From: Escherichia coli
GTDB lineage: Bacteria > Pseudomonadota > Gammaproteobacteria > Enterobacterales > Enterobacteriaceae
Assembly: GCF_003334315.1 (NCBI RefSeq)
Contig: NZ_QOWR01000097.1
Direction: 5' to 3' (one strand)
DNA: 5,142 nucleotides
The position numbers and the translations under genes are program-made. Each line of letters opens with the position of its first letter. Positions within the stretch are counted from its first letter, which is position 1. Below the pieces are notes generated by a model. That model did no database searches and was not told where the DNA came from. It worked only from the letters and a program-made list of their open reading frames with translations. Of the stretch, positions 3,388 through 3,479 are shown piece after piece.

Positions 3388-3422
3388 CACGTACTTTCGG
3401 AGAGAAAGTACGTGTGTTTTTA
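3388..3422 (+). terminator. Rho-independent terminator of the fimbrial operon
   Basis: Perfect 11-bp stem CACGTACTTTC (3388-3398) / GAAAGTACGTG (3404-3414) with a 5-nt loop GGAGA, followed by TGTTTTTA; it lies 28 bp after the adhesin stop. Confidence 0.65.
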
Positions 3423-3479
3423 TCCAGAGCGCCCTAAAACCCCGTCCTTCAGAGTGGAGGTATAAGGCGCACTGGATAA
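3420..3479. repeat. Near-perfect 14-bp inverted repeat flanking a 32-bp spacer, in the intergenic region between the fimbrial terminator and the phd promoter
   Basis: TTATCCAGAGCGCC (3420-3433) and GGCGCACTGGATAA (3466-3479) pair at 13 of 14 positions; the spacer is CTAAAACCCCGTCCTTCAGAGTGGAGGTATAA. Function unknown. Confidence 0.4.

Follow-up and report, generated by a model that had tools for sequence, protein, structure and literature searches.

A decayed left end of an IS609-like insertion sequence as the probable origin of a 64-bp palindrome between a fimbrial operon and a phd-doc cassette in Escherichia coli

The junction between the fimbrial operon and phd-doc carries a long imperfect palindrome

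The 5,142-bp stretch of Escherichia coli DNA analyzed here (contig NZ_QOWR01000097.1, assembly GCF_003334315.1; "the window") joins a fimbrial operon to a P1-like module with the addiction genes phd and doc. Between the two lies an inverted repeat that a preliminary description had left unexplained. We found that this repeat is most probably what remains of an IS609-like insertion sequence (IS) of the IS200/IS605 family, namely its left end (LE), alone and decayed, a reading to which we assign a probability of about 0.8.

Both 14-mers originally described, TTATCCAGAGCGCC (3420–3433) and GGCGCACTGGATAA (3466–3479), are present and complementary at 13 of 14 positions, the mismatch being A3428/A3471. 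A repeat search showed the structure to be larger than first noted, with arms of 26 nt (3418–3443 and 3456–3481) that are 81% complementary and enclose a 12-nt loop. The "C-rich spacer" does lie between the 14-mers, but it is itself an imperfect inner hairpin plus linkers. Across the whole window, this palindrome is the sole inverted repeat of at least 14 nt within 120 nt. Its parts and the terminator preceding it are as follows.

3388–3414, + strand: intrinsic terminator stem-loop of the fimbrial operon, CACGTACTTTC-GGAGA-GAAAGTACGTG
3418–3481, no strand assigned: whole imperfect palindrome (64 bp), from repeat search, folding and shuffles
3418–3427/3472–3481: outer 10-bp stem
3428/3471: A/A mismatch, followed by the middle 5-bp GC stem (3429–3433/3466–3470)
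3440–3459, + strand: degenerate inner hairpin, CCCCGTCC (3440–3447), loop TTCA, GAGTGGAG (3452–3459)

The inverted repeat is more than a chance arrangement. Arms of 16 nt with no more than one mismatch and a 3–60-nt spacer turned up in 1% of shuffled windows. Folded as RNA, the + strand of the region reaches −29.4 kcal/mol (z −4.0) and its − strand −33.6 kcal/mol (z −6.0); on each strand 0 of 200 shuffles was as stable. Scanning 3200–3700 against Rfam 15 at a permissive E-value gave no family at or above its gathering threshold. The best match below threshold was to the nematode microRNA precursor mir-60 (window 3417–3482; 22.2 bits against a gathering threshold of 67, E 0.05). This and the matches to small nucleolar RNAs, all of them sub-threshold and to eukaryotic hairpin families, were rejected as similarities of hairpin shape only. 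The mir-60 match illustrates how long imperfect bacterial palindromes mimic microRNA precursors.

The core of the palindrome matches the left end of IS609-like elements

We searched 5426 complete E. coli genomes (28 Gb) by blastn with positions 3412–3488 as query. Full-length matches were limited to about 84 records, while the portion 3412–3470 was found at about 7100 partial places in 3965 of the genomes, with 80–90% identity and E-values down to 1e-8. Every partial homologous match stops at query position 59, which is window position 3470. The same portion is found in 641 plasmids (E down to 3e-10). Of the matches inspected, some lie at the tnpA-proximal end of elements annotated as "IS200/IS605 family transposase" and "RNA-guided endonuclease InsQ/TnpB". 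Here the LE is next to the 3' end of a tnpA read leftward, with a rightward InsQ/TnpB gene beyond it, and one case has the K-12-type tehB-ydcL-insQ-ydcO context. Other matches immediately precede a lone tnpB, in an element of about 1.34 kb. Against LEs that flank annotated tnpA/tnpB genes, the window sequence is 84–89% identical over 47–59 nt. The name IS609 rests on the insQ annotation in the tehB-ydcL-insQ-ydcO context together with the size and cleavage sites given in PMC6906374.

Alignment of authentic copies (alignments A1 and A3) yielded a near-invariant LE, TTAT|CC(A/G)GTGCGCC.TAAAACCCCGTCCTTCAGGGCGGGGATATAAGGCGC|GGTTTT, and the opposite ends of the inspected elements carry a related hairpin terminating in GGATGTCAA. 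IS609 is cleaved at TTAT on the left and at TCAA on the right (PMC6906374). In A1 and A3, TTAT stands directly 5' of the LE in 7/7 enterobacterial copies, and in the window it likewise immediately precedes the sequence homologous to the subterminal LE hairpin of authenticated elements. The relic shares with these elements the TTAT site, the 5-bp GCGCC/GGCGC stem, the TAAAACCCCGTCCTTCAG core and the ATAAGGCGC 3' foot. The features assigned on this basis are the following.

3420–3423, + strand: TTAT, target and left cleavage tetranucleotide (PMC6906374), forming the last bases of the fimbrial operon and abutting the relic
3424–3470, + strand: probable IS609-like LE subterminal hairpin relic, identified by blastn and alignments A1 and A3; 41/47 positions equal those of the closest authentic LE, on a Klebsiella plasmid (L009)

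The statement that no annotated feature explains the repeat holds for the database records, in which "none" is annotated under the match, but the IS family that accounts for it is well known.

The same LE is common to two architectures (L001–L005; L010:2200–3545; L011:2200–3620): divergent tnpA and tnpB on E. coli chromosomes, where tnpA is often a pseudogene, and a tnpB-only form of about 1.34 kb on plasmids. The tnpB-only form also occurs on a Xylella taiwanensis plasmid at about 81% identity, with the 5' flank TTTAC|CAGG instead of TTAT|CC.

The tail of the fimbrial terminator probably supplied the insertion target

The terminator at 3388–3414 is the sole terminator-like site in 3300–3600. 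Its tail, TGTTTTTAT at 3415–3423, supplied the insertion target. As first described, the repeat starts inside the terminator T-tract, the left arm overlapping the tail TGTTTTTATC; it does so because the IS used the TTAT formed by this tail.

Strain 2018-02-2CC carries a diverged fimbrial operon (86%; L007) that matches the window through its last gene, terminator hairpin and TTTTTTAT and then continues into unrelated DNA. The homology ends at 3423; the IS end thus begins at the very point where the fimbrial DNA of the window stops. By its sequence, the strain 2018-02-2CC locus suggests something like an empty site. Downstream of the operon, that strain has the 3' part of a tRNA-Ser gene that IS1 has truncated (L007:3558–3617). 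RefSeq gives this tRNA-Ser a length of 127 nt running into the IS1 end and ARAGORN calls no tRNA there; the 127-nt gene looks like an annotation artefact.

Other IS609-like LEs also lie directly after terminators, namely the ydcL terminator GCGCCATCgttaGATGGCGCTTTTTAT (L004:170–200) and the terminator of a phage-plasmid gene, AAAGGGGctgaaataCCCCTTTCACTTAT (L010:2175–2205). These cases suggest that terminator tails are preferred single-strand targets for IS609-like elements, and the relic shares this placement right after a T-tract.

The relic is decayed and the remainder of the element is missing

Unlike an authentic IS609-like end, the relic keeps the first 47 nt only and has no tnpA, tnpB, omega-RNA region or right end (RE). 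Neither the window nor the identical locus L006, as annotated by RefSeq, has a tnpA or tnpB open reading frame. With only 31 nt between the relic and P1-like DNA, there is no complete IS here in the sense of tnpA and/or tnpB between an LE and an RE. The right-end hairpin and the TCAA tail were not found in the window either, the RE core and tail motifs being absent apart from the LE itself.

Within its 47 nt the relic differs from the closest authentic LE, that of L009, by six substitutions. Three to four of these, located in the inner hairpin's 3' half (GGGCGGGGA -> GAGTGGAGG), affect positions that are invariant in authentic copies. The authentic form CCCCGTCC-TTCA-GGGCGGGG stands against CCCCGTCC-TTCA-GAGTGGAG in the window. 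The three inner-hairpin differences from the consensus in A3 are transitions (G>A, C>T, G>A). The outer 5-bp stem of the relic is intact, whereas Watson-Crick pairing is still possible at 4/8 positions of the inner stem. Folded as DNA, the 47-nt core reaches −6.9 kcal/mol versus −13.8 kcal/mol in authentic copies, so that its stability is halved. In the IS200/IS605 family, as in IS608 and ISDra2, the inner hairpin is the structure recognized by the Y1 transposase TnpA. Since substitutions have broken this hairpin, the relic is probably a poor TnpA substrate.

A short inverted duplication lengthened the hairpin

The relic differs from authentic LEs in one further respect. In these, the 5-bp GCGCC/GGCGC stem is the sole pairing outside the inner hairpin, and the sequence then reads GGCGC|GGTTTT; in the window the hairpin is followed by an inverted copy of its own flank instead.

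3471–3481, + strand: ACTGGATAAAA, inverted duplicate of the flank and LE start (3418–3428), forming the outer 10-bp stem; not IS609 sequence

The tract ACTGGATAAAA is the exact reverse complement of TTTTAT|CCAGT, i.e., the flank, the target and the first five LE bases as found literally in L009. In the window 10 of its 11 bases are complementary in register, and simple arithmetic puts the chance of at least 10 at about 8e-6. A continuation as GGCGCACTGGATAAAA is unlike every authentic LE examined, all of which continue GGTTTT. The IS thus breaks off precisely at the 3' foot of the hairpin, and the inverted 11-nt copy turned a modest IS hairpin into a long palindrome.

The IS interior is not resumed past the 11-nt tract, where a base-by-base count on alignment A1 gives 8/20 identities, and a simple in-register template switch alone is therefore insufficient. 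In 3471–3507, there was no similarity above noise to IS609-like interiors or right ends. A resemblance of TGGAGG to the right end is superficial and out of register, and was rejected. According to three papers (PMC7202029, PMC8794818, PMC13100816), template switching at imperfect inverted repeats homogenizes and extends their arms. Quasipalindrome template-switch or fold-back products (the Ripley model, the E. coli work of the Lovett laboratory, and the template-switch mutations of Loytynoja) resemble the relic in that one arm of a pre-existing imperfect hairpin is lengthened by an exact reverse-complement copy of the opposite arm, here 10/11 nt in register; the three papers give this as the signature. 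They differ in that here the copied tract is followed by unrelated DNA and not by the original template sequence, so a second rearrangement or another route via two inverted LEs is needed.

P1-type DNA begins downstream of the palindrome

P1-type homology (about 91%) begins at 3502 in P1 and P7, and this holds for 22 phage records, thousands of E. coli replicons and 1248 PLSDB plasmids; the sampled phd-doc plasmid matches in PLSDB all begin at 3499–3508. The repeat is therefore not P1 sequence, nor does it lie within annotated P1 DNA. The preliminary description had placed it at the junction of the fimbrial DNA and the phd-doc module, and this is now bounded by the fimbrial end at 3423 and the P1-type start at 3502. 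On this side the features are as follows.

3482–3501, + strand: 20 nt of uncertain origin, possibly a diverged phd −35 region (TGGAGT at 3485–3490 aligned with the P1 −35, TGGTGC)
3502–4252, + strand: P1-like module, about 91% identical to P1, P7 and P1-like plasmids, with the RefSeq annotation of the identical locus L006
3508–3513, + strand: Pphd −10, TATAAT, inside the P1-like block
3545–3766, + strand: phd, in the P1-like block
3766–4143, + strand: doc, in the P1-like block
End of 3502–4252, + strand: 5' fragment of pdcA, cut by an IS3-family fragment

By the P1 annotation, the −35 of Pphd precedes position 3502 and the −10 follows it; hence the −35 region of this cassette is not P1's own, being either different or diverged. 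Positions 3477–3501 share 13/25 identities with P1 in fixed register (shuffle p about 0.003), and by this resemblance the 20 nt at 3482–3501 may be a diverged Pphd −35 region. As to their source, the exact 23-mer is absent from 100,044 species genomes and there is no significant match to the IS interior. A sigma-70 consensus scan gave no promoter-like site in 3300–3600. The repeat does end just before the phd promoter, as had been stated, with 3485–3490, which aligns with the −35 of Pphd in P1, starting 4 nt after the end of the right arm.

Among copies of the locus, three positions in the phd promoter differ (T/C at 3505, 3515 and 3535). The P1-like block is cut within pdcA by an IS911-like fragment of the IS3 family that starts at 4253, with an orfA-type transposase open reading frame at 4187–4504 (− strand). 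The 3' part of a tyrosine integrase gene (4654–5085, − strand) runs off the right end of the window.

The palindrome is confined to one junction

The palindrome with both flanks occurs once per genome (median 1) in about 85 of the 5426 genomes. Of its places, 62 are chromosomal and 26 on plasmids, and the hosts are mostly pigs, poultry and companion animals. Copies are 97–100% identical over 141 bp, and the hairpin is unchanged in the ten copies whose sequence was read. Four metagenome contigs carry the palindrome, all at the same fim-phd junction. The degenerate symmetric pattern TTATCCRGNGCGCC-N26-38-GGCGCNCYGGATAA had no match in 100,044 species genomes, and a metagenome scan for the decayed LE 24-mer returned the same junction only, with no parent IS. 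The palindrome is single-copy and monophyletic.

The chromosomal copies (L006, L014) lie in an island with a P4-type integrase adjoining tRNA-Phe. On plasmids, the block from the fimbrial operon through the relic and phd-doc to the truncated pdcA is found on replicons of about 106–114 kb with phage-like genes, which are possibly SSU5/pHCM2-type phage-plasmids. One copy is on the 108-kb p.CT29-P1 (L019), whose phage-like genes include a DNA ligase and a DnaB-like helicase. IS3-family fragments bracket the block on plasmids and chromosomes, the pdcA fragment being 75 bp long on the plasmid and 102 bp on the chromosome.

Other strains carry further insertions here. In L014 (2985–3010), an IS1 lies at window position ~3403 and the fimbrial operon is deleted. 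In L012 and L013 (2990–3060), an IS903B end falls exactly at 3423/3424, the TTAT|LE boundary, and an IS1 end at ~3474, leaving a piece of about 51 bp trapped elsewhere in the chromosome. Three IS ends of other families thus lie within about 75 bp of the palindrome; the vicinity of the hairpin may be an insertion hotspot, or this may be coincidence.

Alternative explanations for the palindrome

We weighed whether the palindrome serves as a functional RNA structure, i.e., a hairpin on fimbrial read-through transcripts acting as a second transcription block, a 3' stabilizer or an insulator for phd-doc. The strong folds on both strands, the position between two transcription units and the lack of variation in the ten copies read speak for such a role, and the LE hairpin of IS200 reportedly acts as a terminator against external read-through. 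On the other hand, a U-tract follows the hairpin on neither strand—the sequence past the palindrome is AAAATGATGG on the + strand and AAAAACACAC on the − strand—so that it does not have the GC-rich stem with U-tract of an intrinsic terminator, and the terminator scan gave the upstream site only. It also stands behind an already good terminator (11 bp and a T-tract) and has no Rfam family above threshold. Invariance is to be expected of a module that is 97–100% identical everywhere, so no covariation test is possible, and the strength of the stem is owed to a one-off duplication found nowhere else. We therefore consider an RNA function improbable. Nor can the structured 5' leader suggested earlier be one of phd: the repeat lies upstream of the −35 and −10 (the latter at 3508–3513), and by the P1 annotation −35, −10 and phd are all downstream of it.

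Still further from the evidence is a non-autonomous IS200/IS605 element, resembling a miniature inverted-repeat transposable element (MITE) or palindrome-associated transposable element (PATE), that resident IS609 TnpA would still mobilize in trans; this we hold to be very improbable. It would account for the LE-like hairpin directly after a TTAT cleavage site, and the symmetry of the palindrome puts TTAT|CCAG.GCGCC on either strand. Short IS609-like derivatives with internal deletions do occur. One of about 360 bp on the Klebsiella pneumoniae IncHI1B plasmid NZ_CP089011.1 (L009:2200–2560) consists of about 70 bp of LE, the last ~280 bp of tnpB and an RE ending in GGATGTCAA. Like it, the relic has lost internal sequence just inside the LE; such miniature derivatives, in contrast, keep a right end with hairpin and TCAA, while the relic has none and occurs in a single genomic context. 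A piece of 51–56 bp starting exactly at 3424 at another chromosomal site (H244, H245) might also count in favor, but it proved to be this very locus, caught between an IS903B end on one side and an IS1 end on the other, and was rejected as an independent copy; its apparent extra length arose because the BLAST alignment ran on into the inverted repeat of IS1 (GGTAATG versus GGATAA). The degenerate inner hairpin, the occurrence of one copy per genome at one junction only in E. coli genomes, plasmids and metagenomes, the lack of the symmetric pattern among the species genomes, and the finding that several inspected resident tnpA genes are pseudogenes all stand against mobilization. Copies at unrelated loci, which would mark a dispersed MITE/PATE or a repetitive extragenic palindrome (REP), were not found. 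REPs and bacterial interspersed mosaic elements, with their TnpA-like REP-associated tyrosine transposases, resemble the relic as extragenic hairpins that are related to IS200/IS605 subterminal hairpins and lie downstream of an operon. Judged by copy number and homology they differ: REPs are high-copy, while the relic is single-copy and homologous to an IS end, not to a repeat dispersed through each genome.

The K. pneumoniae derivative carries no IS gene annotation, and similar LE matches are present on 86 Klebsiella plasmids. Its tnpB part would encode omega-RNA, and it may be a non-autonomous element still supplying a guide RNA.

Slimmer again are the prospects of a protein-binding site of the neighbors, be it an extra Phd/Doc operator, an attachment or recombination site of the island's tyrosine integrase, or another recombinase target. 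The dyad symmetry at a module junction just upstream of the phd promoter and the P4-type integrase gene about 1.2 kb downstream are compatible with it. IS609 LE homology and the inverted copy, however, explain the sequence base for base. As for the additional operator that had been proposed, the repeat lies outside the P1-homologous promoter-operator region (from 3502) and has no GTGTACAC-type palindromes. Those occur at 3514–3540 and would form the Phd operator, as in P1. More than 1200 other phd-doc loci lack the repeat. The attachment-site idea was rejected as well: no tRNA or tmRNA was found in the window, the repeat has no tRNA similarity, and the island's tRNA-Phe end lies elsewhere. Nor does a site-specific recombinase target agree with a sequence that is the LE hairpin of an IS200/IS605 element, which uses a Y1/HUH single-strand transposase.

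A chance inverted repeat without history, for which one might cite that about 7% of same-size shuffled windows contain a 14-nt repeat with a single mismatch, is refuted by the homology of the core to an IS end, significant database-wide (E 1e-8), and is also contradicted by the far longer full structure, with its 16-nt version in 1% of shuffles, and by the fold z-scores of −4 to −6.

Proposed history of the junction

The decayed IS609-like LE leads to the following scenario. An IS609-like element would have inserted after the TTAT of the fimbrial terminator T-tract, a normal single-strand "peel-and-paste" target. It would then have been lost save for its first 47 nt (3424–3470), comprising the 5-bp GCGCC/GGCGC stem and the inner hairpin, the latter now broken by substitutions. 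For the right arm, we infer two possible routes. In route (a), fold-back priming or replication template switching at the hairpin would have made the inverted copy, with an illegitimate join to phd-doc accompanying or following it; this requires one insertion only. In route (b), a second IS609-like copy would have inserted in opposite orientation at a bottom-strand TTAT upstream of phd, in a precursor where the phd-doc cassette was preceded by an inverted CCAGTGCGCC abutting ATAAAATGATGGAG. The top strand would have read CCAGTGCGCC inverted |ATAAAATGATGG, and the two inverted LEs would have collapsed via the 5-nt GGCGC microhomology. Route (b) would explain why weak P1-like similarity starts at the predicted boundary near 3476. 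The same illegitimate event would also have joined the fimbrial operon to the phd-doc cassette.

Several points weigh against this reading. No intermediate was found: an intact IS609-like element turned up neither behind such a fimbrial operon nor in front of a phd-doc cassette; as a result, the order of events and the formation of the right arm are inferred only, and routes (a) and (b) are not discriminated. The parent IS was not found either, and with the best LE match only 87–89% identical, some of the "decay" may instead reflect an unsampled, diverged relative. None of the ten copies read differs in the hairpin, while the adjacent phd promoter varies among them at three positions; this is weakly compatible with constraint, though the whole module is very young (97–100% identity). 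Finally, the absence of a present function rests on position and sequence logic. By that logic the palindrome is most likely inert now. Lying downstream of the fimbrial terminator and upstream of the phd promoter, with no U-tract and no longer a good TnpA substrate, it would do nothing specific today, and phd-doc would keep its own −10 and operator region inside the P1-like part.

A bolder version, which we regard as rather unlikely, is that the LE hairpin of IS200/IS605 elements forms a structure-driven hotspot for illegitimate joining, and that fold-back or template switching both made the palindrome and fused the fimbrial operon to the phage-derived addiction cassette in one event. If true, a stabilized "adhesin plus toxin-antitoxin" module resulted, whose present vehicles of spread in livestock E. 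coli are phage-plasmids and tRNA-Phe islands, and the palindrome would also keep attracting other IS elements, as with the ends at ~3403, 3423/3424 and ~3474 in other strains.

Implications

IS remnants are commonplace and this family is well characterized; specific to this locus is only the truncation at the hairpin foot with an 11-nt inverted duplication. The earlier suggestion of a recombination scar marking the phd-doc insertion survives in part. The palindrome is a DNA-mobility scar at the junction, although not a conventional site-specific recombinase target but the LE hairpin of a Y1/HUH single-strand IS plus a short inverted duplication. Module boundaries are thereby fixed to the base, with fimbrial DNA up to 3423 and clear P1-type DNA from 3502. 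The locus offers a natural example of an IS200/IS605 insertion at a TTAT ending a terminator T-tract whose hairpin was then lengthened by an inverted copy of its flank, and it may interest students of template-switch mutagenesis or of IS-mediated assembly of plasmid cargo. Overall, an unannotated 64-bp palindrome is now explained as a relic and need not be pursued as a regulator, small RNA or recombinase site: what lies at this junction of gene modules is a common type of mobile-element scar and no new regulatory element.

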